From a virus (Duplodnaviria > Caudoviricetes): a DNA stretch of 64,000 bases. The notes below the pieces were generated by a model that was given only the letters and a program-made list of their open reading frames with translations, searched no databases and was not told the origin of the DNA. A program made the position numbers and the translations under genes. Shown one piece after another: positions 4,293-30,113 of this stretch (the stretch's first letter is position 1; each line of letters opens with the position of its first letter). The stretch lies in IMG/VR virus record IMGVR_UViG_3300002307_000042, positions 1 through 64,000 of that record. The stretch is one strand, 5' to 3'.

Positions 4293-5216
4293 TTATTTAT
4301 CTTCTACCAGCAAGTTCTCTAATTCTTCCATGGTGATTTGAGAGATGTTTCCAGATCGGTCGCGTATTGTCATAACCGTGCTTTGCGCAAAGCACCCGAT
4401 TTCACGATTGAATTTATCATCGCCTAGCTGGGCTTTCATTTCTTTAGCCCACTGCTCATCGCGACCAGGCTGTTCATGCCAATATGCACGGTACGCTTTG
4501 AAGCCGTTGACTCCTACTTCAGTTGTGTTACCAAACGCATCTTCGGTTTTGTTTGCTAACTTCCAGATAAGAGCGAATTGATCTTCGTCACTGTTTGGAG
4601 TTGAAGTAATAATTGCTTTACCACCAGTTGCTAGGGTAGGGGTGATAGAAGTCCAGAATTCTTTAGCGATTGAAGGGCGGACGAACGCGAATTCGTCAAG
4701 GTACAGTAATGTGATAGACATACCACGACCTGTATTTTCAGTCGTAGTAGCACTTACAATACGAGAACCATTCTCAAAGTCAAGTGAACCCTTGTTGTAG
4801 GTAGTTACACCAGCTTTAATGTGATCTGGGCAATTTTCATATGCATAACGAATACGCTGCATGATTTCTTGTGCGCCGGTATACTTGTGTGCTGCAATTA
4901 GAATAGTTGAGTCGGGGACAAACATTGCATACCACAGTAGATATCCTGCTGCGGAGGTTGACTTACCTGACTGGCGAGGCATAAGAGAGATAGAGAAACG
5001 ATACTTGTGATAGGTTTCAATTAGTCTTTCTTGATATGGCCAAGGGTGGTAGTTCATGCTACCTCGTGTAGGATGCTGAATCATAAAGAAGTTATCCATG
5101 AAGTATAGATAGCCTGTTTCTGGATCACAGCATTTCATAAACTCATCAAGTTCTTTTTGGTTCTTGAAGACAGTTTTCTTGTAGGGATCTTTGATTAGTG
5201 TTGGTGTATTTGTCAT
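4293..5216 (-). CDS. terL: Terminase large subunit N-terminal ATPase part ending in the N-half of a split intein
   Basis: Walker A PRQSGKST, Walker B LLYLDEFAF, TSTPN coupling motif; ends REIG-CFAQSTVMTIRDRSGNISQITMEELENLLVEDK*. Confidence 0.95.
   Translation of the reverse strand: MTNTPTLIKDPYKKTVFKNQKELDEFMKCCDPETGYLYFMDNFFMIQHPTRGSMNYHPWPYQERLIETYHKYRFSISLMPRQSGKSTSAAGYLLWYAMFVPDSTILIAAHKYTGAQEIMQRIRYAYENCPDHIKAGVTTYNKGSLDFENGSRIVSATTTENTGRGMSITLLYLDEFAFVRPSIAKEFWTSITPTLATGGKAIITSTPNSDEDQFALIWKLANKTEDAFGNTTEVGVNGFKAYRAYWHEQPGRDEQWAKEMKAQLGDDKFNREIGCFAQSTVMTIRDRSGNISQITMEELENLLVEDK
4296..4394 (-). mobile_element. Split intein N-fragment (IntN, 33 aa)
   Basis: Block A-like CFAQSTVMTIRD starting at Cys1 (TGC 4392-4394), followed by a stop 33 residues later. 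Confidence 0.9.
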
Positions 5217-16646: not shown

Positions 16647-17744
16647 TTAGTTGCCTGCTTCTACAATGTACTTACCGTACTTCTTGTAGAATTCATCAAA
16701 GTTGGGAAGCTGCGAGGGCTCGATCGGCAGCTTGTACGTCTTGAGTGCAATCTTAGAACCCATGACGACCAGCTCCGTTTCGAAGTTCTTCATCATGTAG
16801 TCAAAGAAGTTGGCAGCCATGTCATGAAACTTCTTGTTATCAGTGCGCTTGTTGTCAATGATATCCTTGAGTTCATAGCACATAGAAATCGTAAGCGAGT
16901 ACATCGCAGAGATTTCCTTCACATTGAGTTCCTTGACCTTGCCCTCAAGAATGTCAATCGGATTCGGCATCTTGCTAGCAAACTTACGGTGAGCCATAAA
17001 CTTAGCAGCAAGACCATCACCGATAGCACCTGCAACGAGCGTGAACAGGGTATCGTTATCAGTGTTGTCTTCGTCGGTGAGCATGTCGCTCACGAAAGTC
17101 CACGAACGAGGAGTAGCGAACGCACGAGACGAACCCTTAGCGTCAAAGTCATAACCGTCCTGCTTAGAGAACGAGAGATAACCGACAACATCCTTGTGGA
17201 TGCCCTTGTTAACAGCCCAAGTCTGCCAGGCGTTGAAGTCATACTTCATTTCAATGTGAACGAAGCGGTTAGCGAGCGGCATCGGCATGCGATAAGTAAC
17301 ACCCTTGTCGCTATCACGGTTACCAGCAGCGACGATAACCACATTGTCGGGAAGCTTATACTTACCAACACGACGGTTCAGAATAAGCTGATAACCAGCA
17401 GCCTGAACTGCGGGCGGAGCCGAGTTCATTTCATCGAGGAAAAGAACGATGATCGGATATTCAGCAGCAAGCTCTGCGCTAGGAAGATCGACAGGCTCGG
17501 CCCAGTCCATCTTGCCGATTTCCTTGTTGAAGTAAGGAATACCACGAATATCAGTCGGTTCCATCTGAGCCATACGAAGGTCGATCATGAAACCACCAAG
17601 TTCGTTAGTGATATCTTCAACGACTTCGCTCTTACCGATACCCGGAGGGCCCCAGAGGAAGACAGGACGCTTTGCCTTGAAAGCAGTGAGGATGGCCTTA
17701 CGGGCCTGAATAGAAGTAATAGTGTGATTTTCAGAATGAGACAT
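16647..17744 (-). CDS. MoxR/dynein-related AAA+ ATPase
   Basis: Walker A GPPGIGKS, Walker B LFLDEMN, AAGN sensor, PLANRF arginine finger, TPRSW. Confidence 0.92.
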   Translation of the reverse strand: MSHSENHTITSIQARKAILTAFKAKRPVFLWGPPGIGKSEVVEDITNELGGFMIDLRMAQMEPTDIRGIPYFNKEIGKMDWAEPVDLPSAELAAEYPIIVLFLDEMNSAPPAVQAAGYQLILNRRVGKYKLPDNVVIVAAGNRDSDKGVTYRMPMPLANRFVHIEMKYDFNAWQTWAVNKGIHKDVVGYLSFSKQDGYDFDAKGSSRAFATPRSWTFVSDMLTDEDNTDNDTLFTLVAGAIGDGLAAKFMAHRKFASKMPNPIDILEGKVKELNVKEISAMYSLTISMCYELKDIIDNKRTDNKKFHDMAANFFDYMMKNFETELVVMGSKIALKTYKLPIEPSQLPNFDEFYKKYGKYIVEAGN

Positions 17745-18144: not shown

Positions 18145-18173
18145 ACACTACTGTAGTTTTGGGCAATTGTCAA
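18145..18173 (-). promoter_or_regulatory. Sigma70-type early promoter, probably leaderless
   Basis: TTGACA-N17-TAGTGT, with ATG 6 nt downstream. Confidence 0.6.
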
Positions 18174-21100
18174 CCAGTTTCTTTCATCATGTTAGGATCG
18201 TTTGGTGAGAAGGATCCGCGATTGTGAATGGCTTTCACTTGATTAGGATTGAATATGACCCAAACTTCTCCTGATTTGGCATTACAGTCATTGGGTATAG
18301 CTTCTGCTATGATAGCCCCGTCGAACCCTAGCTTCTGTAGGTTTTCTACAAATTCAGCGCCTTCTGGTCCATCGAACAACTCCCAACGCACAAATTGATC
18401 AACATAGTAATATATTGAACGTAAGTCAATATTATTTTGTTTGAAGCCCTCTACAGTTTCTTCGTTGCTTAGCATACGAGAAAGGCTGTAGTCTCTTAGA
18501 TCAATAGGATTCTGCACAGACAAATAGACCGGTATAATTCTTCCGCCTGGTTTATATTCTCTAGTGTTTGGATCTTCTATAAATGTTTCAGCAAACTTTG
18601 GATCTACTGCAAAGAAAGAACCATGGCGCTCTACATCAAATGTCATGCCTAATACACTTGTAAAACCCTTCCCACTTGTTTGGAAGCTGTCAAAGTCTTT
18701 AGTTGTTGCGTGATAGAACACTCTTGGCTTATGTCCATCCCAAGCATGTGTGTGCTGTAACCAATTGTCTAGTCTTTTTTCTCTATGTTCTTTGTCATAG
18801 CCCGGGAATAACTCTTGCTGTTCTTGATCTTCCTTTAGTGTAGATGTTTTAGATTTGCCAAAGAAAAACGCATCACTTTGCGAACTTGCATTTTCACCCA
18901 AGCTTGCTCTTCCGATTTCCCATCCCTCGGGCTTTTGTATATAGATGAATGCCAGTGCGCCATCCGCTGTTGCTTTGTCAGGGAACATTAATGTTACTAA
19001 TCGCTCAAAGTCATTGCCGCGTCCCATTTTATACAGTGTTTTATCCGGAAACGAGGAACCGTCGTCAAACTCCAACCATGCAATATATTCATTATCATAT
19101 ACTACATCAGTAATGGTTTTTGGATTTAGAAATCCCCGAAGTTCAATAATATTCTCAGCAGTATGTGGTCTAACCTGAACTATGCTTAACGTATTACCTA
19201 CTTCCGGCTTAACCTTAGAACGTTGGTCGTACCGGGTAATAGCATTTTGGAAATCTAATAACTCCTTGATTTTCGGAGAAACGGTGTTTTCATCTACTCG
19301 CTCTAGCCAGGCAAGATTGTCTCCTAAATGATTTACTATTCTGGTACCATAAGTTTGTCGGCGATCTATTGCTTCTTGCTCAAAAAACCGTCGTAACTCC
19401 GATTCCTTTAAAGTGCATTTTTTGAACTTCCATTCGGGTAACTGCTCATCTTCTGCTAAAAATGATTTCCACTCTTTCATTAAGTTTTCTGCTATCTTAC
19501 CGTCTGCTCTAGCTTGGGGAGGAATACCTGCTCGTGATGTTTTCCAATTAAATGCCTTAGCGTTCTTTTTGATACTGTCTGGACGGACATCCTTTGTCAA
19601 TGCAGTCTTGAAGCGAGGATCACTCTTTTCCTTCTCACTTGGTATATACCCTGAGGCTTCTATTAAATCAGGTACATCAACTACCGAATGTCTGTGAGGT
19701 ATAATCTCAGACAGAGTGGCTCCGTATATATCCATCGGCATTAATGATTTTTCATTTTCCAGCATCTGACTGCTATGCAGTGACTCACTGATTGTTATTG
19801 AAGTGGGTCCCGGAACGAAGGTTTCTCTAGCATTTTCCCATTCTTTGAATAATGCACCGGGGTCGATAAGGGCACCGGTTTGGTCACGTAACTTAAATCC
19901 AGTAGTATCTCTTTTTGTTTGATTGAGCAACCAGGTGATGCCATCTGGTGTTAGGTTATCTGTTTTGCCCAAATGTATTTCTTGCCCTTTCAAATTTATG
20001 ATATATTGAAATAGATTGAATACTAATCCCTTGTTAAATTGAGAGATATTTTTCATGCCCTTCAGACAACCAGCTTGTAGATACACAAAAGCCTCTATTT
20101 TTGAATCATTAGCAAAGAAATAGATATTGTTTGGTCCCGAGGCAAATAAAAATACCGGTCTACTTCCTATAGTGCCGTCTTTAACAGAGTTGCTAATAAT
20201 TTGTTCATCGGTCAACGAAAGAGGACCCATTGCGTTAGAAAACCCAATTTCATCAAGTTGTCTTGATATTTCATTAACAGGTCCTGTTCTAACCAGCGTA
20301 GTAACAGAATAACTACCAGGACCTTTTTTCAAAGAGTTTTCGTCTGATGTCTTAATAGATTTTAGCTTATAGTTAGGTAATGCCTTAGCAGCCATTCTTC
20401 CCATAGTAGCGTATAACTTTACTCTGCTCGGTTCACTAGTAGATGCCTCAAACATGATATACTTAGGATTCAAAATAGATACCGCGTCTTTTACTATGTT
20501 GACTACTGTGCTTAGAACCTTGATAGAATCGCCGGTGCCGGTCAACTTTTCTGTTCCTGCGCCAGTGTCTTGCTTAACCATGTTGAAGTTTACTACTGCA
20601 ATATCTTTTCTATGCATTGCTACAGCAACATCATATAAGTTGCCTTCCTTAGTAGTAAACTCATACTCTAACTTCCAATCATTATGCTGCTTTAGCTTGT
20701 TGTATGGGTAAGGAGAATCCATCCATTCAGTTAGCTTTTCCTTGCTCAGAATATGATCTGGTGATTCTGCTACCTGGGTGGTAGGCTTGTCAAGAATATA
20801 GTTCATTGCGCGTTGCACAATATTCAATGGTTTTTCAACTTTTGGACTGTTCATTTCAGCCTCAAAAAACTTGTATGCTCTAGTGACTAAACGCTTATAC
20901 CTTTTCCCGTCTTTAGGTAAAAACTCTGCTATTCTGTTGTGGTCTAGCGTAACATTGATAAGTTCGTATAATCTTGTTTTTGAAAATACTCTGTCATTTT
21001 TCTTAATATCGGACAATGTCAATGATATGTTATACAGTGCTTCCTGAAATCTAGCATTTATCTCGTAAGGAAGTGTCGCATAAGCTCCTGTAGGGCGAAA

Positions 21101-22522
21101 CGCCTTACCTTTACTTTTATTATAATCAAGAGCATGTAATAACTCATGTGCTATAGTTTTAGCAATGTATCTATCTAATGAATAGCCTTTGCGTTTCGCA
21201 AACTTTACTAGTGCGGGATAATATAGATGTATTTCATTAGCATAGAAATTATACGCACCTACCGTGCCGCGTTCAAATCTATCTGCTTTATAGTCTAATA
21301 TAAACTTGAGTGTTTTTAAAATTTTAGACAAAACAGGGTCATTGGTTTCAGGAACACCCAATTCTGCTGCGGTAATACCATAAACTCCTAGCTTTAGTTG
21401 TTTCATGTCCGGGCCTAATACATTGGCTACTTTACCAAGCATTGAAGTATTTCTAGATGCCATTTTAGCAATGACCGATCCTGCCTTATTCGCTACTAGA
21501 TTAATGACCTGGCTTTCTTCGGTAGTTTCTGTTAATTGGTCTGTTTCTTCACTGAATATATTTTTAAACTTGCCTTTAAGACGATCCCATTCACCCTTCA
21601 ATGCAGATGCAGCCATTTGTTTTTCTTGTGCGGCCCTATCTATTTTAGATTGCAATGGGTCTACTTCATTTTGCAGTTCGTTAGGGTGTATGTTCCATAA
21701 TTTCATCATTCTATCAATAATAGTGGTGATAGTATTGATTTCTTCTTTAGTCCTGCCACTAGTATTTCTTAATTTATTGATTTTTAGTATCGCGTCTTCT
21801 CTACTAGTGGCTTCGTCTAAGCTAAGCTTTTCACTTTCAAGCTTACTTCGCAAATCATACAGTGCGTTTATTCCACCCTGTGTTCTTATTGCTTTGTATG
21901 CAAGGTTTTCTGGACTAAACTCTCCTCCCTTGTCTAACCCTGCTTGACGATATCGCCTAACAGTTGATATTGCTTTATTGATTCGGTCCAAGCTTTTGGT
22001 TTTTAGTGCAAGCTCAATGAAATCATTTAGACTTTCATACTTGTGTCTGGTTGAATCTTGGTCAAAGTTTGCTCTTGTTCTTTTAGGTGCCTTCAACCAG
22101 CGATCATGCAATAAGCTATATTCACCTAAACTTACCACAGGTTCATTACTATCTTGAACATAGCATTCAACAGGAATACCCCTTACAGTAATGTCTAAAC
22201 TGTCGTTGTATAGTGTTTTCTTAGCAGTGAATAATTCTTGGTATACTTCATTGTTCGGTAGTTGTCTAAAATCAACTACGATGTGCAAATCAATATCGCT
22301 GTGAGGAGTATAACTATAAGCCGCATTACTACCACTGATAGTAACGTCTTTAACTTTAAGATCAGTTAATCCTAAAAAAGAAACAAAGTCTTTGGCAATC
22401 AATAACAATTGTTCTTTAACTTCACCGTCAAGAACATGCTTATGCCACAATTTAGGATTAAGTTTGCTGTGAAACTTTATAGCGTCTGATAAGTTAAATG
22501 AGTCAAGTTCTGTAATATCCAT
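18170..22522 (-). CDS. 1450-aa polyvalent protein: Pol-beta-like nucleotidyltransferase, DUF2786-like helix, HExxH peptidase, further modules, C-terminal ADP-ribosyltransferase-like domain
   Basis: ISGSNA...SDIDLHIVVD; REDAILKINKL...MMKLWNI; IAHELLH...PYEINAR; FYHATT...GSFFA...PVYLSVQNPID...GFDGAI...EVWVIFNPNQVK...NRGSF. Confidence 0.85.
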   Translation of the reverse strand: MDITELDSFNLSDAIKFHSKLNPKLWHKHVLDGEVKEQLLLIAKDFVSFLGLTDLKVKDVTISGSNAAYSYTPHSDIDLHIVVDFRQLPNNEVYQELFTAKKTLYNDSLDITVRGIPVECYVQDSNEPVVSLGEYSLLHDRWLKAPKRTRANFDQDSTRHKYESLNDFIELALKTKSLDRINKAISTVRRYRQAGLDKGGEFSPENLAYKAIRTQGGINALYDLRSKLESEKLSLDEATSREDAILKINKLRNTSGRTKEEINTITTIIDRMMKLWNIHPNELQNEVDPLQSKIDRAAQEKQMAASALKGEWDRLKGKFKNIFSEETDQLTETTEESQVINLVANKAGSVIAKMASRNTSMLGKVANVLGPDMKQLKLGVYGITAAELGVPETNDPVLSKILKTLKFILDYKADRFERGTVGAYNFYANEIHLYYPALVKFAKRKGYSLDRYIAKTIAHELLHALDYNKSKGKAFRPTGAYATLPYEINARFQEALYNISLTLSDIKKNDRVFSKTRLYELINVTLDHNRIAEFLPKDGKRYKRLVTRAYKFFEAEMNSPKVEKPLNIVQRAMNYILDKPTTQVAESPDHILSKEKLTEWMDSPYPYNKLKQHNDWKLEYEFTTKEGNLYDVAVAMHRKDIAVVNFNMVKQDTGAGTEKLTGTGDSIKVLSTVVNIVKDAVSILNPKYIMFEASTSEPSRVKLYATMGRMAAKALPNYKLKSIKTSDENSLKKGPGSYSVTTLVRTGPVNEISRQLDEIGFSNAMGPLSLTDEQIISNSVKDGTIGSRPVFLFASGPNNIYFFANDSKIEAFVYLQAGCLKGMKNISQFNKGLVFNLFQYIINLKGQEIHLGKTDNLTPDGITWLLNQTKRDTTGFKLRDQTGALIDPGALFKEWENARETFVPGPTSITISESLHSSQMLENEKSLMPMDIYGATLSEIIPHRHSVVDVPDLIEASGYIPSEKEKSDPRFKTALTKDVRPDSIKKNAKAFNWKTSRAGIPPQARADGKIAENLMKEWKSFLAEDEQLPEWKFKKCTLKESELRRFFEQEAIDRRQTYGTRIVNHLGDNLAWLERVDENTVSPKIKELLDFQNAITRYDQRSKVKPEVGNTLSIVQVRPHTAENIIELRGFLNPKTITDVVYDNEYIAWLEFDDGSSFPDKTLYKMGRGNDFERLVTLMFPDKATADGALAFIYIQKPEGWEIGRASLGENASSQSDAFFFGKSKTSTLKEDQEQQELFPGYDKEHREKRLDNWLQHTHAWDGHKPRVFYHATTKDFDSFQTSGKGFTSVLGMTFDVERHGSFFAVDPKFAETFIEDPNTREYKPGGRIIPVYLSVQNPIDLRDYSLSRMLSNEETVEGFKQNNIDLRSIYYYVDQFVRWELFDGPEGAEFVENLQKLGFDGAIIAEAIPNDCNAKSGEVWVIFNPNQVKAIHNRGSFSPNDPNMMKETG

Positions 22523-23205: not shown

Positions 23206-23263
23206 CCAAAAAATGAGGTGGGGAGATTCTGTTACGAGGCTCTCCCCTAGCCCTATGCTAACC

Positions 23264-23302
23264 TCAAGCGGCTAGAGCAAATGCAAAATCGTTATCGTTT
23301 GC
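23264..23302 (-). other. tmRNA proteolysis tag reading frame (A)ANDNDFAFALAA*
   Basis: GCA AAC GAT AAC GAT TTT GCA TTT GCT CTA GCC GCT TGA. Confidence 0.95.
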
Positions 23303-23396
23303 GTCTACTTTTATTTAGTCTATATGCGACCAACCAATCAGTCTAGGCTTTCCTATTCCGCGTGTATCGATTCCCAAATATCGTCCCCATCAACTA

Positions 23397-23475
23397 CACT
23401 GTCAGCAGGACTTGAACCTGCAAGCGTATTTCAGCAATCCCGTCAGATAGCGTTTACCAATTTCGCCATGACAGT
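23397..23475 (-). ncRNA. tRNA-like element (Leu-type D arm, canonical T arm, degenerate anticodon arm, no CCA) inside the tmRNA intervening segment
   Basis: ACTGTCA/TGACAGT acceptor stem, TG, GCG-AAATTGGTAAA-CGC D arm, GCAGG-TTCAAGT-CCTGC T arm. Confidence 0.8.
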
Positions 23476-23550
23476 GTAGATGGTGGAGACGGAGGGGTTC
23501 GAACCCTCGTGTACTCCGCTTTTATTGATAACCATCATCAACTAATAATC

Positions 23551-23581
23551 TATTTATACGCTAACATAATGGAGTTGTCAA
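23551..23581 (-). promoter_or_regulatory. Composite early/late promoter of the tmRNA gene
   Basis: TTGACA-N17-TATAAA, where the -10 box is part of the T4 late consensus TATAAATA. Confidence 0.8.
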
Positions 23582-23607
23582 GAAGTATTTTACTAAGTTT
23601 TGTAAAT

Positions 23608-24007: not shown

Positions 24008-27000
24008 TCACTGCAATTTTGATAGAATTACTGTGATTTCATCAATCTTGGTAGTTTGTTGATCTATAATTCTTTGTTGTTCTTTAATTGCTTCAATTAG
24101 AAGAGGTATGATTTTGTCATAATGAACAGTCTTATAGTTCTCTCCTGATATACTATATTCATTTCCACTGTCGTCTTTACCAATATCGAATGGCGCAGGA
24201 ACAACAATTTCCGGTAGAACTTTTTCAATTTCTTGTGCGATAACACCAACTTGCTTCTTATCATCAGTATAACCATATGATGCCGCGATATCATTTGAAC
24301 GATAATACACACCGGAAACTTGCTTGATTTTGTCAATTGGATTTTCAATCGTGCCTTCAATATTCTTTAGTCGACCGTCTGAATAGTATGCAGTAATGTT
24401 GTTAGTTGCACGAATCTCGCCGGCAGTAGTTGACGCAGCAGTTCCTACACCAATTGAGTTAAACTGAGAGTTTTGTGTTGTGCTAGTAAATGTGGTAGCT
24501 GATCCGGCAGTAGTCGCAAATGTCGCATTAGCTACTGCTCCAACTACATTTGCACCTGCAACACTATTTGCAACATTTGCTGTTCCGGCAGTAGTCGCAA
24601 ATGTCGCATTAGCTACTGCTCCAACTACATTTGCACCTGCAACACTATTTGCTACACTTGCTGTTCCGGCAGTTGCAGCATTTAAATTAGCTACTTGGGT
24701 AGTTGAAGATACTACTAGCGGAGCGGTGCCAGTAGCAACAGTAGAAATCAACTGACCAGCAATATTCAATGCTGCGCTAACATTAGTGTTGGTTGCATTC
24801 AAGAAAATAGTAGCAGTGTTGGATACTGATTGAATTCTAATACCAGTGTTAGCATTTGCCCATGGAGCAATAGTTAGATTGGCATTACCTACAGCAGAGA
24901 TATTGCCAAAGTTAATAAGCGCATCATCTGCGCCGGTGAGTGCGTTATAAGACCCCGGCCCTGCTCTAGGAATTAAAGCAATATCTTGCGTGCCGTTAAC
25001 TGCTCTTATAAGTTTGATAACTCCTGCTACGTTCGAAGAATTAGTGGCTGTTAAATTACCGACGTTGGCATTGCCACTGATAGTTAGAGTAGTTGCGTTA
25101 ATCTCACCGGCTGTTCCCGACGGAGTAGTACCAACACCCAATGATGTAGTAACTCTAGCATTTCCTGCAACATCTAACTCGTAAGCAGGAATGGTAGTTC
25201 CAATACCTACATTACCTTGAGAGTTAATTCTCATTACTTCTACTGGAATTGCGCCGCCGGGATTAGTCTTAAATACAATCCTGCCTGGCACATTAGTGGT
25301 TGATACTGCGCCGTCTACTTGACTAACAATGTCAGCAGTACCTACGAATTTTGCACCATCACTACCTGAAAAACCAATTGCGCCAACAGTAGTATCCGCA
25401 GCAACAGCTCCGTGAACACCATATGTAGCACTATTACTCTTATTAAGCGAAAGATATGCACCGCCTGATAGAGCAGTTGAAGTGCTCCATTGACCAAGTG
25501 CTTGCCATGCAGTACCACCTGTTCCTGCATAACTCGTTCCTGCGCCAACTATTCCTGCTCCATAATTAGTTGAAAAACCAGGTAAATAGTATGAAGTAGA
25601 TGTGCCATCTGGAGTTGCAATGAGTCTATCTGTTAACGTTGTCACACCGCTTATGTATGCAGTACCGGTGATATTTGCACCAGTAGAAGTAACTACAAGT
25701 TCTGGAGTTGCGCCGCCGCTAGCATTTAAGCTGATATTTCCATTTGCAGGATTAATACTAATAGAACTATTACCATTAGCTAAATTACCTATAATATTAC
25801 CGGTGGTAATATTACCCGATACCGTTAGTGATGTTAATGTACCTAAGCTAGTAACATTTGGCTGCGCGGCAGTTGTTAGTGTACCGGTAAGCAAAGAACC
25901 TCGCACAGTTCCGCTGTTAGCATAAACGTTACCCGATACAGTATTTCCAGTGACAGTAGCGGATGTTAGTGTACCTAAACTAGTAATATTAGGTTGAGCA
26001 GCGGTAGTCAATGTACCTGTCACCAATGAACCCGATAAATTAGCTCCAATTATATTACCTGTTGCATTTAACGTACCGGTGATATTTGCGCCAGTAGAGG
26101 TTATAATCATAACATTAGCAGCGCCGGCAGAACTAAATGTTAGGTTTGCACTGTTTAGTACTGCGATATTTGAAGATCCGTTGCTTAGTGACCCAGTTGA
26201 AATAGTAGTGAATGTTAGGTTTCCGGCGCCATCAGTGGTAATAGACTGTCCGGACGTACCTCCAGTAATCTTTACATTGGCGATACTTCCTAAGTTTACA
26301 GTGCCTGCTGCCGTTAGTGATGTTAGTGTGCCCAATGAAGTGACGTTTGGTTGTGCAGCAGTTGTTAGTGTACCAGTAAGCAAAGAACCACGTACAGTGC
26401 CGCTGTTAGCGTAAACATTACCCGATACGGTGTTTCCAGTTACATTCAATGAAGTTAAAGTGCCTACACTAGTAATATTAGGCTGTGCAGCAGTTGTTAC
26501 TGTTCCGGCAGATAGAGCAGAAGTTGCCTCTAATGTTGATCCTGATGTAACAGTCCAAGCACCGGTAATAGTTCCCGTAGTAGCACTAGCTCCAGTTGTC
26601 AATGTCCTACTAGTTAGTGTAGTTTGCACATAAACATTCGGGACCCCGGTCGTTAGTAAAGTTCTTACGTTGCTATCAGTATATGAACCTGCAAAATTTA
26701 TAGCAACACCGTTAGCATAATAATAGTTGTCAGCTTTGATGCCGGCACCCGCTACATTAGGTACAGTAACATTTCCTCCAGTAACAATAAATGCATTACC
26801 AGTTACCCCACCACTTACCGTGTAAGTGCCGGTTATTGTACCCGGTGTACTTGCGCCTCCGGTTGTGATATTAGTTACTATCAAATTACCTGACGCAGTT
26901 AAGTTGCCACTTACGGTAGCATTAGCAGTAACCGTATTCGCTTGTACAGTAAGAGATCCTACGGTAGCAGCGCCCGAAACCGATAAATTACCAGGTGTTG

Positions 27001-27355
27001 CGAAATTCCCGGCAGTAGCGTTTCCTGTAACATTTATTGTACCGAACGTAGTCGCGCTTCCTGAGCTTGCAGTAGCCAGCGAAAGCCAAAGACTAGCATT
27101 TGCTTCACCGTCACTAGGACATACATACATCGTTTGTGTAGAAGAATTAAACCAAAGCTGACCTTGTAGTGCATTAGGAGGAGGAGTGGGACTGCAAAAA
27201 TTTTCTAGTGTATGAACAAAATTAGTATCTAATTGTTGACCATAGCCAGCATAATTTCTTCCTGGTAGACCAATTGATGCAGCAGTGGTATTGATGGTAC
27301 CGTCTGCAATCGTGCAAAGCACTGTTCCGTTAGTCTTTACAATAGTATATGCCAT
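24008..27355 (-). CDS. Tail fibre with C-terminal peptidase S74 intramolecular chaperone
   Basis: YYSDGRLKN...GVIAQEIEKVLPEIV...YDKIIPLLIEAIKEQQ. Confidence 0.9.
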   Translation of the reverse strand: MAYTIVKTNGTVLCTIADGTINTTAASIGLPGRNYAGYGQQLDTNFVHTLENFCSPTPPPNALQGQLWFNSSTQTMYVCPSDGEANASLWLSLATASSGSATTFGTINVTGNATAGNFATPGNLSVSGAATVGSLTVQANTVTANATVSGNLTASGNLIVTNITTGGASTPGTITGTYTVSGGVTGNAFIVTGGNVTVPNVAGAGIKADNYYYANGVAINFAGSYTDSNVRTLLTTGVPNVYVQTTLTSRTLTTGASATTGTITGAWTVTSGSTLEATSALSAGTVTTAAQPNITSVGTLTSLNVTGNTVSGNVYANSGTVRGSLLTGTLTTAAQPNVTSLGTLTSLTAAGTVNLGSIANVKITGGTSGQSITTDGAGNLTFTTISTGSLSNGSSNIAVLNSANLTFSSAGAANVMIITSTGANITGTLNATGNIIGANLSGSLVTGTLTTAAQPNITSLGTLTSATVTGNTVSGNVYANSGTVRGSLLTGTLTTAAQPNVTSLGTLTSLTVSGNITTGNIIGNLANGNSSISINPANGNISLNASGGATPELVVTSTGANITGTAYISGVTTLTDRLIATPDGTSTSYYLPGFSTNYGAGIVGAGTSYAGTGGTAWQALGQWSTSTALSGGAYLSLNKSNSATYGVHGAVAADTTVGAIGFSGSDGAKFVGTADIVSQVDGAVSTTNVPGRIVFKTNPGGAIPVEVMRINSQGNVGIGTTIPAYELDVAGNARVTTSLGVGTTPSGTAGEINATTLTISGNANVGNLTATNSSNVAGVIKLIRAVNGTQDIALIPRAGPGSYNALTGADDALINFGNISAVGNANLTIAPWANANTGIRIQSVSNTATIFLNATNTNVSAALNIAGQLISTVATGTAPLVVSSTTQVANLNAATAGTASVANSVAGANVVGAVANATFATTAGTANVANSVAGANVVGAVANATFATTAGSATTFTSTTQNSQFNSIGVGTAASTTAGEIRATNNITAYYSDGRLKNIEGTIENPIDKIKQVSGVYYRSNDIAASYGYTDDKKQVGVIAQEIEKVLPEIVVPAPFDIGKDDSGNEYSISGENYKTVHYDKIIPLLIEAIKEQQRIIDQQTTKIDEITVILSKLQ
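24504..24670 (-). repeat. Two near-identical 81-bp (27-aa) tandem repeats inside the fibre gene
   Basis: Units start at 24504 and 24585 and encode AGTAxVANSVAGANVVGAVANATFATT. Confidence 0.9.
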
Positions 27356-27395: not shown

Positions 27396-30113
27396 TTAAA
27401 TTCCTATAGCAAAATACATAGGGTATACTGTTGTATCTTGCCCATGGTAGTAAGTGAATCCGTTTTTGGTGATGCCGTATACCGAATTTTCGCCGCCGCC
27501 GCTATTATTAGTAGAAAGTGCGAGGGGAGTAACTTGCACATTATAGCAATCAGTGCCGAATGGGTAAGTAAAAGGTACATATATACTAGAATCTTGTCCT
27601 ACTGTGGATGATCCAACACCCCATACCATTTTTAATCCGTTAGGTAATGTAGCGTATCCATTTGTTCCATTAACGCCTGCAAAACTTCCGGCAGTTAACG
27701 CAGGCTGGCCGCCTATGCTCAACGTGCTTCCTACACTCGTAATGTTAGGTTGTGCAGCAGATGTTACTGTTCCTGCTGTAGTTGCACTAGTAGCAGTGCC
27801 TGAACTAGTCGCAAATGTTGCGCTAGCTACTGCTCCAACTACGTTTGCGCCTGCAACACTATTTGCAACGCTTGCTGTTCCGGCTAGAGTTGCAGTTGCA
27901 GCAGTTCCTGCATTCGTTGCAAAAGTGGCATTAGCTACTGCGCCGACTACATTTGCACCCGCAACACTATTTGCAACACTTGCTGTTCCTGAATTATCTG
28001 CATAAACTGCATTTGCAACTTTGCCGGTTACATTTGCACCCGCAACACTATTTGCTACACTTGCCGTTCCTGCATTAGTCGCACTAGTGGCACTGGCTAC
28101 TGCTCCTACTACATTTGAGCCGGGTACACTAGTAAGTCCGGTGCCAGACCCAACAAAATTTGCATTAACTGTTCCCACGCTCAATGTGTTAGTACTAGGA
28201 ACATAACTTAGTGAACTATCTAAGCCTAAATCAGTACTTGACGAAACTCCTGAAACAAAAATAGGATAAAAAGCAGAAGCGTTAGCACTTTTGCTTGTTA
28301 CTGCTATATTACTCGCAGTAGTAGCATTAGTTGCACTTGTTGCGGTAGTCGCACTTGACACCGTGCCTACAACATTGGATGCTCTAATATTACTAAGGTT
28401 TCCGCCTTCACCTTGTAGCTGTCCGGCAGTGACTTTACCACTAACATTAAGACTTGATAATGTGCCGAGGCTAGTGATGTTAGTTTGGCTTGATCCTAGT
28501 ACGATTGAAGAATAAGTGGCAGCGTTTGCATTGCTTACAACTCCATTAACATTTGCGCCCGATATATTCGTAAGTCCAGCACCATTTCCATAAAAGGCTC
28601 CGGTGTTTGCAACAACATTTGGTGCAGTTACATTTCCTGAAGAATTGACTGAAGTTAAAGTACCTACAGTAGTAATATTACTTTGGGTAGCAGTAGTGAT
28701 GTTTCCTGATAGATTACCAGCTGAAATATTTGAAGTTGTTATGCCGGTAGTGGTAAACACTGCAACGTTTGTAGTGCTTCCTACTGAGATAGTTACGTTA
28801 CTATTAATGCCGGGAATTCTTATATTAGATGTCCCATTTGCAATAGTATTAGTTGTTGTAGTAGGTAAGTTTGTCAATTGACTACCATCACCTATAAAAT
28901 AATTAGCAGTAATATCACCGTTAGTATCACGCAATGCAACTGTGCTTGCTGTAGCAGTTGTCGTAGCAGTAGCTCCATCCAACAAGTCTGCATTTAAATT
29001 GGCAACTTTAGTAGTTGATGATACTACTAGAGGTGCAGTACCATTAGTAACGGTACTAATAAATTGATTAGCAGACACATTTCCTAACACTGTTAAGAAA
29101 TTTGTACTAGGAACAAATGACAATCCAGTGTCAATTGCGATAGTTGCACTGCTTGATGCGCCAAGTGCTAGTGTAGGATAGTATGTAGTTGGGCTGGTAC
29201 TCTGTGTTGAAACTGCAATTAGGTTTGCCTGAGTTGCATTAGCAACTGTGCCACTTACATTTGCACCATCTACTGCCACACCATTGATTTTAGAGCTTGG
29301 GCTCAGAGTCCAATTACCCGTTATAGTACCTGCTGTAGTAGCAGATCCAGTAGAAAGTACATCACCGTTTATATTAGCCCCGCCGCCTAATAAACCAAAA
29401 TCACCCGTATAGGTAGGTAAATAGCTCGCAACATTTGAATTTGAATAGACCGTACCAAATACAACTGGACTGCCGTTCGCATAATACCAGTTATTTGTTT
29501 TTATTCCTGAAGCTAATAGATTTCCGCCGGTTACCCAAAGTGCAGTACCGGTAACCCCATTCAGTGTGTTTGAACCAGTTAAAGTCCAGGCTCCGGTAAG
29601 ATTTCCGTTAGTTCCGGTGGCACCAGCACTAATTTGAGTAGTATTAATCTGTGCTAAATTACTTTGACCAGTGACATTTGCGTTTGCAATATTTGCTTGA
29701 ATGTTGACTTTGAGATAATTTACATTTGCTAAGTTAGCTGTTATATTGCTAGTAATCTGTGCATTGTTAGCAATTACATTTCCTGTTGCGATCACATTTC
29801 CAGAATATGAGTTTCCTGTTGGGTCTTGAAACTTGATCTTATACCAATTATTTGGATTAGATTCTCCGTCTATTGGGCATACGCACAATGTCGCAGTAGA
29901 GGTATCGTACCAAAGCTGTCCTTGTAATGCGTTAGAAGGAGGCGCAGTGTTTGCAAAATTTTCTAAAGTATGCACAAAGTTAGTGTCAACTACTTGTCCA
30001 TAACCAGGGTAGAGTCTTCCTGGTAGTCCAATTGAGGTACTTACTGTATTGATAGTACCGTCAGTGATTGTCGTTAGAATAGTACCATTAGTTTTAACAA
30101 TCGTATATGACAC
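27396..30113 (-). CDS. Tail fibre protein (905 aa), N-terminus paralogous to the 1115-aa fibre
   Basis: YTIVKTNGT...GLPGR.Y.GYGQ..DTNFVHTLENF shared N-terminus; C-terminal GYATLPNGLKMVWG fibre-tip motif. Confidence 0.85.
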   Translation of the reverse strand: MSYTIVKTNGTILTTITDGTINTVSTSIGLPGRLYPGYGQVVDTNFVHTLENFANTAPPSNALQGQLWYDTSTATLCVCPIDGESNPNNWYKIKFQDPTGNSYSGNVIATGNVIANNAQITSNITANLANVNYLKVNIQANIANANVTGQSNLAQINTTQISAGATGTNGNLTGAWTLTGSNTLNGVTGTALWVTGGNLLASGIKTNNWYYANGSPVVFGTVYSNSNVASYLPTYTGDFGLLGGGANINGDVLSTGSATTAGTITGNWTLSPSSKINGVAVDGANVSGTVANATQANLIAVSTQSTSPTTYYPTLALGASSSATIAIDTGLSFVPSTNFLTVLGNVSANQFISTVTNGTAPLVVSSTTKVANLNADLLDGATATTTATASTVALRDTNGDITANYFIGDGSQLTNLPTTTTNTIANGTSNIRIPGINSNVTISVGSTTNVAVFTTTGITTSNISAGNLSGNITTATQSNITTVGTLTSVNSSGNVTAPNVVANTGAFYGNGAGLTNISGANVNGVVSNANAATYSSIVLGSSQTNITSLGTLSSLNVSGKVTAGQLQGEGGNLSNIRASNVVGTVSSATTATSATNATTASNIAVTSKSANASAFYPIFVSGVSSSTDLGLDSSLSYVPSTNTLSVGTVNANFVGSGTGLTSVPGSNVVGAVASATSATNAGTASVANSVAGANVTGKVANAVYADNSGTASVANSVAGANVVGAVANATFATNAGTAATATLAGTASVANSVAGANVVGAVASATFATSSGTATSATTAGTVTSAAQPNITSVGSTLSIGGQPALTAGSFAGVNGTNGYATLPNGLKMVWGVGSSTVGQDSSIYVPFTYPFGTDCYNVQVTPLALSTNNSGGGENSVYGITKNGFTYYHGQDTTVYPMYFAIGI

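Follow-up and report, generated by a model that had tools for sequence, protein, structure and literature searches.

Circularly permuted genes for transfer-messenger RNA (tmRNA) have so far been treated as two functional halves and a throw-away loop between them. We found one published case of a tRNA in that loop: Nawrocki, Petrov and Williams (2025; PMC11915505) describe a permuted tmRNA whose intervening sequence holds an intact tRNA-Ala, and they call the feature unique. Here we consider a tRNA-like RNA that lies in the 92-nt intervening segment of a permuted phage tmRNA gene, on the minus strand of a 64,000-nt stretch of viral DNA (Duplodnaviria; Caudoviricetes). This stretch, the window in what follows, is the first 64 kb of the 79,430-bp IMG/VR virus record IMGVR_UViG_3300002307_000042, whose CheckV completeness is ~22%.

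With the tRNA-Ala case, the window shares a tRNA-shaped gene placed between the CCA of the acceptor piece and the G1 of the coding piece. There, however, the insert is a high-scoring complete tRNA in a metagenome-assembled genome (MAG) binned as archaeal, whereas the window's element belongs to a phage, has neither an anticodon loop nor a CCA, and has its acceptor stem fused into an 11-bp closing helix, the clamp. An earlier reading of this DNA, made from the sequence only, knew of no description of such an arrangement, and apart from this single case we found none either. The host gene has a close parallel in the OM43 phage Melnitz and the pelagimyophages, where an alpha-type permuted ssrA in a T4-like aquatic phage likewise comes with an early-type promoter and an ANDN...LAA-type tag; the account given there of the phage two-piece tmRNA does not describe the intervening segment or a nested RNA (Buchholz et al., 2022; PMC9004378).

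The nested element passes the fold test for a tRNA yet fails as a working tRNA. We favor, with moderate confidence, the reading that it is a class-II, Leu-type tRNA-derived RNA that has lost its anticodon loop and is carried as exchangeable cargo in the clamped slot of the permuted phage tmRNA.

A tRNA-like fold inside a two-piece tmRNA gene

When the 92-nt segment is scanned alone, the tRNA model RF00005 matches 23397-23475(-) at 40.2 bits (gathering threshold 29, E 8e-8), and the element is the sole match to the tRNA model in the whole 79-kb record (E 1.5e-8). ARAGORN also calls the element, as tRNA-??? over 23396-23476(-) and with 'gacg' as a 4-nt loop. For the segment as a whole, the folding energy is -31.8 kcal/mol (z = -3.5), and none of 200 shuffles does as well. 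The parts of the gene are these:

23481-23542, minus strand: tmRNA acceptor piece, which supplies the 3' half of the tRNA-like domain, acceptor 3' strand included, from the RF04321 and RF01849 alignments
23389-23480, minus strand: intervening segment (cargo slot), 92 nt, between the tmRNA CCA and the tmRNA G1
23476-23480, minus strand: leader UCUAC, the 5 nt that separate position +1 of the nested element from the tmRNA CCA
23469-23479, minus strand: 5' strand of the clamp, CUACACUGUCA, from sequence, fold and family-wide covariation
23397-23475, minus strand: nested tRNA-like RNA, 79 nt including the discriminator G73, from RF00005 and ARAGORN
23394-23404, minus strand: 3' strand of the clamp, UGACAGUGUAG, abutting the T stem without a gap, as in tRNA geometry
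23389-23393, minus strand: UUGAU before the tmRNA G1, of which UGAU is the near-invariant end of long clamped spacers
23217-23388, minus strand: tmRNA coding piece, with G1 at 23388 and the start GGGGACGA, from the Rfam alignments

The closing stem pairs CTACACTGTCA (23479-23469) with TGACAGTGTAG (23404-23394) in 11/11 Watson-Crick pairs, and its inner 7 bp are the acceptor of the element (23475-23469 with 23404-23398, 7/7 paired). There follow U8 at 23468, G9 at 23467 and a D arm, GCG-AAATTGGTAAA-CGC (23466-23450), which combines a 3-bp stem with a class-II (Leu-type) loop, AAAUUGGUAAA, holding G18 and G19. The T arm, GCAGG-TTCAAGT-CCTGC (23421-23405), has a 5/5 stem and a loop of the form TTCRANY, and is preceded by a variable region of 15 nt (23436-23422). 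At the place of the anticodon arm, there is no 5-bp stem with a 7-nt loop; what stands there is a stub hairpin, ATCT-GACG-GGAT (23448-23437), with a 4-bp stem and a 4-nt loop, a region that the RF00005 alignment passes over as a local insertion. A hidden normal anticodon arm was looked for and rejected, as 23422-23449 offers no alternative arm of 17 nt. The discriminator is the G at 23397, CCA is not encoded, and the 3' end is not free: G73 and the nucleotides next to it (GUAG, 23397-23394) pair with the last four nucleotides of the leader, CUAC. The cargo cannot decode, and as encoded it cannot be charged, because of its G73, its missing CCA and its paired 3' end.

The surrounding gene is a circularly permuted alpha-type tmRNA. 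On the minus strand, RF04321 scores 78.8 bits (cut-off 47) over 23264-23542 and RF01849 (alpha_tmRNA) 72.5 bits (cut-off 50) over 23217-23585, and a CCA-ended acceptor piece stands upstream of a coding piece that starts at G1. The acceptor piece carries the T arm GAGGG-TTCGAAC-CCCTC and ends in ...CUCCACCA, with ACCA finishing at 23481. In the predicted acceptor stem, GGGGACG of the coding piece pairs with CGUCUCC, and this helix includes G3-U70, the alanine identity pair. The tag frame (23302-23264) reads ANDNDFAFALAA and then a stop, with the hydrophobic LAA ending, and the coding piece finishes in a 3' hairpin and a U-run. Since the nested T arm differs from that of the tmRNA, we rejected the idea that an integrase had left behind a second copy of the tmRNA 3' end.

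The sequence-only reading had placed the 92-nt segment, the CCA end at 23481, G1 at 23388, the 11-bp stem, U8-G9, the arms and the stub exactly where they are found, and its central claim, that a tRNA-like RNA with a Leu-type D arm is nested in the spacer of a two-piece tmRNA, is borne out jointly by ARAGORN, RF00005 and the tmRNA models.

Programs differ in what they report here. In a whole-window scan the RF00005 hit is hidden, because tRNA and tmRNA form one Rfam clan and the better match is kept. The locus (23217-23585) is an annotation trap: ARAGORN calls the nested element and misses the enclosing tmRNA, while Rfam with clan competition does the reverse. A mechanically derived open reading frame (ORF), 23324-23479(+), was discarded as antisense and inside an RNA gene.

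Clamped spacers across viral permuted tmRNA genes

An IMG/VR pattern scan (CCA, 50-80 nt, T-loop motif, 12-30 nt, GGGGNNGA) returned 46 loci with a T loop in the spacer, ~38 of them permuted tmRNAs, with 28 distinct spacers built on the same plan. Together with three from prokaryote genome records, these give 31 distinct T-arm spacers (alignment A2). All of them have a closing stem of ~9-14 bp, and in most the T arm abuts the 3' strand of that stem. A GG in the internal loop is more than 90% conserved, and we read it as a probable analogue of the D-loop G18 and G19. The equivalent of tRNA position +1 falls 2-7 nt after the tmRNA CCA in this family, and 5 nt after it in the window. The invariance of the T loop in A2 is by construction, because its letters are in the search pattern; the clamp and T stems and the GG are not part of that pattern. 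Clamp and T stem are paired in 86% of the alignment cells, versus 65% in shuffles and 27-45% with slid partners, and compensatory changes on both sides are found for 12/12 clamp pairs and 3/5 T-stem pairs.

The window follows the family plan closely. Its clamp (family form ~10-13 bp, starting 0-1 nt after CCA and ending 4-5 nt before G1) has 11 bp, an offset of 1 and a terminal UUGAU, and its T arm (family form GGTTCRANTCC, abutting the 3' strand of the clamp) has a 5-bp stem and a gap of 0 nt. It is also the most tRNA-like of its kind: alone among the 28 T-arm spacers, and alone among 160 long viral spacers sampled, it is called as a tRNA by ARAGORN.

Scans of viral permuted tmRNAs were also made without the T-loop condition, for spacers of 0-30, 31-60 and 61-90 nt (at least 120 rows each); these three and the T-loop scan together hold at least 353 distinct spacers. 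Among the matches listed, spacers of 50 nt or more are almost always closed by a helix. That helix has 10-12 bp in 103 of the 136 distinct long clamped spacers and starts 0-1 nt after the CCA, and UGAU stands before G1 in 112 of the 136 (U 135, G 123, A 129, U 131); the listed spacers of 4-20 nt lack the UGAU motif. A T arm occurs in a few percent of the listed 61-90-nt spacers, and the rest hold unrelated sets of hairpins. In the predicted precursor fold, UGAU pairs with the tmRNA's ACCA (A73-U, C75-G and A76-U, with a C74/A mismatch), and the acceptor stem, this linker and the clamp form one helix of ~23 bp between two T arms. On this modeled structure, the clamp and UGAU might together signal processing, for instance by an enzyme of the RNase III type.

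One group of T-arm spacers, class A, is found well beyond tmRNA genes. Its interior has 88% mean identity over nine members, against 65-72% for the host tmRNA pieces and 65% for the clamps. The class A RNA is ~75 nt long, with the core GGGAAG..CAG.T.GACAA.AC..G.ACAAGGTTCRAATCC and its own covarying closing stem. A scan for the core gave 70 IMG/VR loci, and in 35 of 45 distinct contexts the RNA is free-standing, mostly between tRNA genes; L604:6550-6635, for instance, lies between tRNA-Lys and tRNA-His, and other examples are L616, L640, L624 and L623. In a relative of the window phage (L587), a class A RNA lies at ~4700-4790, 400 nt upstream of the tmRNA. The class A RNA of L604 matches no Rfam family, and Rfam scans of L034, L094 and L604 gave chance-level scores only (tRNA-Sec 14 bits, mascRNA 13.5, YrlA 15.5, TYMV-type TLS 14.4). 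From its conservation in sequence we lean towards class A cargo being functional. By analogy, the tmRNA spacer slot would be used in the way of a gap between tRNA genes, where tRNA processing sets small RNAs free.

Another group, class E (GGAAATGC...GGTAAG...CTGAAGT.GGTTCAAGTCC), occurs in the permuted tmRNAs of two prokaryote MAG contigs, L094:3187-3301 (MAG labelled Saprospiraceae) and L111:1907-2022 (MAG labelled Parcubacteria), and in an expanded 127-nt version in three syntenic relatives of the window (L520-L522). For L094, a plain 7-bp stem closes the nested element and is followed by ACCA one base before the tmRNA G1, so that a CCA-ended tRNA-like RNA could result.

Turnover of the spacer and origin of the insert

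With the neighboring ATPase gene (16647-17744) as query, 80 syntenic loci were found, at 73-94% protein identity. In those that have the tmRNA, the spacers measure 5, 9, 12, 14, 46, 70, 72, 94, 119, 121, 127 and 135 nt, the 119-nt one being of the T-arm type. Two of them have 5 nt, TCTAT in L519 and TCTAC in L523, and the latter equals the first five bases of the window's spacer. L324 and L154 have nearly the same tmRNA with different spacers, clamps included. Closer still, Logan contigs from three studies carry both tmRNA pieces at 95-99% identity to the window, and those of runs X1, X6 and X4 diverge from it inside the clamp, at 23399/23400, 23471 and 23480. In wastewater and aquatic samples, then, other inserts fill the spacer of phage tmRNA genes that are nearly identical to this one. 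A search of sequencing runs gave small shares, at most 0.13.

Taken together, spacers of 5-14 nt in syntenic relatives and swapped inserts mean that a structured spacer is not needed for maturation of the tmRNA, and near-identical frames with other inserts place the arrival of the insert long after permutation of the gene. Judged by these sequence comparisons, the window's element is recently placed, optional, exchangeable cargo, and not a required processing scaffold. The scaffold idea, one of those put forward in the sequence-only reading, has the fold recruit RNase P or 3' enzymes to create the CCA end of the tmRNA. It draws on the predicted RNase P site 5 nt past the tmRNA CCA (2-7 nt in the family), on the T arm abutting the clamp's 3' strand in tRNA geometry, and on the proposal of RNase P and tRNase Z for permuted tmRNA (PMC3985003). 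We regard it as improbable, given the short, unstructured spacers of syntenic relatives, the other inserts in near-identical frames and the long spacers without a T arm, which are the large majority of those listed; the most that the fold would do is make up for the insert's own bulk.

As for where the insert came from, D-loop and T-arm patterns, run against IMG/VR and in stricter form against metagenomes, retrieve tRNA-Leu, Ser, Asn and others, together with a few odd tRNA-like genes. In one tRNA-Leu(UAG) gene, the D stem differs from that of the element by one compensatory pair; the gene was selected by the pattern, and its identity therefore says nothing about recency. Between the D and T arms lie 28 nt that show no alignment to the anticodon and variable arms of tRNA-Leu. 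A tRNA-Leu-type (class-II) origin of the nested element is likely on this evidence. The sequence-only reading had gone further, suggesting a decayed tRNA-Leu captured during permutation: the Leu-type origin stands as likely, and the timing of the capture does not, near-identical frames carrying other inserts.

A free-standing tRNA-like gene in a metagenome contig (L598:1373-1450(-), Ga0114959_10031692) has a D loop and T arm as in the window's element. It has a 7-bp acceptor and an abnormal middle of 46 nt that replaces the anticodon and variable arms, and ARAGORN makes no call on it. Run over 185,579 bacterial and archaeal species genomes, the T-loop-in-spacer pattern met almost nothing but tRNA arrays and chance matches; the exceptions are L049, L094 and L111, and the L049 spacer is almost the same as that of the viral L014.

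A neutral remnant would also fit much of this: a phage tRNA-Leu-type gene that recombined into the slot and lost its anticodon loop, and that is now excised and degraded, the rest being intact as the damage is recent. No conserved orthologues of this singleton turned up in IMG/VR or the metagenomes, the nearest tmRNA frames have other inserts or none, in a slot of fast turnover, and ordinary tRNA-Leu genes of phages and metagenomes have the same D loop and T arm. One or two deletions could account for a 4-nt loop, and intact tRNAs are known in the slot (PMC11915505). Against this, the unlikeness to tRNA-Leu extends over the whole 28-nt stretch between the arms, beyond the loop, while no lesion is seen in the acceptor (7/7), the D arm or the T arm (5/5, with a canonical loop). 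Moreover, the acceptor is extended to the 11-bp clamp typical of the slot, which suggests adaptation to it, and many independent spacers keep the clamp, the T arm and the GG loop despite differing interiors. We consider a neutral remnant possible and, on balance, doubtful. Absence of conserved D and T arms in relatives had been named beforehand as the mark of such a remnant. The nearest relatives do have no conserved D and T arms; what is seen in them, however, is replacement of the whole insert, and no decay in place.

Predicted expression and release, and likeness to known systems

Upstream of the tmRNA lies one further feature, read from the sequence:

23552-23581, minus strand: promoter-like site, TTGACA (23581-23576), a 17-nt spacer and TATAAATA (23559-23552)

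The -10 of this sigma-70-type -35/-10 pair doubles as a T4-late-type TATAAATA box, so that by its letters the block would fit both kinds of promoter. A CTTGAC...TATAAATA block is kept upstream of related tmRNAs (L324, L154, L150; alignment A1). A simple promoter and terminator scan listed neither the tmRNA promoter seen by eye nor the terminator, the promoter being missed because the scan's rule for the second hexamer requires T at position 6.

The genes around the locus are T4-type tail-fibre- and baseplate-like genes and the ATPase. The tmRNA gene is set among very large ORFs, 18170-22522(-), 24008-27355(-) and 27396-30113(-), of 1450, 1115 and 905 aa, which match tail-fibre or baseplate PHROGs or have no match; such a tail-gene setting is an unusual neighborhood for a stable-RNA gene. 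The small ORFs that adjoin the tmRNA (150, 66 and 112 aa) have no PHROG match. The 79-kb fragment gave no hit for a CCA-adding enzyme (PF01743) or for SmpB (PF01668), a negative that is uninformative in a record that is ~22% complete.

Under the cargo reading, one promoter would give a single precursor of acceptor piece, cargo and coding piece. The precursor would fold as a dumbbell, in which the tmRNA acceptor stem is followed by the short ACCA/UGAU linker and by the 11-bp clamp stacked on the T arm of the cargo. In general, RNase P makes the 5' end of tmRNA by cutting 5' of G1. Here that cut would fall 5' of 23388, and a second RNase P cut would probably fall 5' of position +1 of the cargo (23475), the cargo having kept the parts that RNase P reads, namely the 7+5-bp acceptor/T-arm helix and the D-loop/T-loop elbow. 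The acceptor piece, left with a UCUAC tail, would be trimmed to CCA by 3' exonucleases, and an anticodon-less RNA of ~79-88 nt, presumably stable, would be set free. Reviews propose RNase P together with tRNase Z as the 3' activity for processing of permuted tmRNA (PMC3985003). The tRNA shape would make a bulky insert removable and probably stable. The proposal that each tmRNA maturation releases the element as a by-product is supported, as an inference, by the known RNase P cut at G1. By analogy with the conserved T-arm RNAs found in this slot and in the spacers of phage tRNA arrays, a passenger small RNA seems somewhat more likely than pure junk.

Several observations weigh against the cargo reading. 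With the T-loop-in-spacer and the D-loop plus T-arm patterns, no close copy of the element was found in IMG/VR or in the metagenome collection, and when the region and the tmRNA were run by BLAST against the phage record collection, the only matches were short ones to tail genes or to generic tRNA T arms, and no relative appeared. The sole look-alike, L036, has 69% interior identity (57±3% in shuffles), carried by generic D-loop and T-arm bases. The element is, then, a singleton without a close relative in these collections, and selection on it is not demonstrated. The contigs from four runs come from relatives, probably from DNA; they cover the tmRNA pieces and leave the cargo uncovered, and they give no RNA starts or ends. 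Ahead of +1, four leader bases are tied up in pairs with the trailer, and an RCCA is lacking, two features that slow bacterial RNase P. Finally, a T arm is missing from most clamped spacers, in which the CCA end must be freed by another route, one that may also operate here; judging from the modeled fold, one possibility is a double-strand-specific cut in the ~23-bp helix around ACCA/UGAU.

An active role for the released RNA is a further suggestion of the sequence-only reading. As a mimic or decoy, the anticodon-less elbow would titrate a host factor that recognizes tRNA shape; a tRNA-targeting defence nuclease, an enzyme of tRNA modification or processing and a synthetase are examples. What speaks for this is indirect: conservation falls on the acceptor/T-arm helix and the elbow, and other T-arm RNAs of this slot, which are scattered through phage tRNA arrays, appear to be under selection. 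Bacterial LeuRS, moreover, does not read the anticodon. G73, the missing CCA and the paired 3' end nevertheless argue against charging by LeuRS, and AlaRS charging is improbable for a nested stem without G3-U70. Mimicry of anticodon-nuclease substrates is precluded by the lack of an anticodon loop, the sequence of the element is not conserved, and no partner gene was found beside it, the flanks being tail-fibre-like genes and small ORFs without family matches. For this particular element we think such a role highly improbable. A bolder and more general version, which we rate as rather unlikely, is that phage tmRNA spacers and the gaps of tRNA arrays would serve as an expression slot for diverse, undescribed anticodon-less 'tRNA-elbow' RNAs, of which the window's is the most tRNA-like; set free by the enzymes of tRNA processing, these would imitate tRNA during infection and might, for instance, tie up defence nucleases of the host that target tRNA, or enzymes that handle it.

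What the comparison suggests about the gene itself is that the loop of phage tmRNAs is a structured, fast-exchanging slot, marked by the clamp and UGAU, that is able to host small RNAs, and any RNA put into it would be expressed and excised for free. Spacer-slot biology of this kind is new to the searchable literature; the claim made for the element is a modest one, for a singleton of unproven function. With its parts that RNase P and elbow-binding factors would read, the element may serve as a test case for the processing of permuted tmRNA, for the enzyme that frees the CCA end, and for non-decoding tRNA mimics in phages.

Described RNAs offer several points of comparison. YrlA, a bacterial Y RNA (RF02553), is likewise an anticodon-less mimic of acceptor, T arm and D arm. 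It has a long stem at the place of the anticodon stem and binds Rsr, whereas in the window the long stem is on the acceptor side; RF02553 has no match in the window, and L094 reaches 15.5 bits against a cut-off of 69. The T4 species 1 and 2 RNAs (rnaC, rnaD) are small stable RNAs co-transcribed in a phage tRNA cluster. They and class A would share with the window's element the character of structured non-tRNA RNAs freed from tRNA-type precursors by the processing of flanking tRNAs; the element, by contrast, is of another sequence class, is far more tRNA-like and has no free-standing copy that was found. In MALAT1 and MEN-beta, RNase P cuts 5' of a tRNA-like fold, which forms the 3' end of the upstream RNA and frees a small tRNA-like RNA, mascRNA. 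The proposed logic is shared with the window, in that a tRNA-like fold downstream lets RNase P set the 3' end of the RNA upstream and a non-decoding by-product results. mascRNA, however, is eukaryotic, receives CCA and has an anticodon-like arm, whereas in the window the cleavage is a predicted one and the upstream RNA does not need the fold; RF01684, the mascRNA model, has no match in the window and a chance-level 13.5 bits on one family member. By analogy with these systems, the element would work most like a mascRNA-type passenger or a passenger of a tRNA operon.

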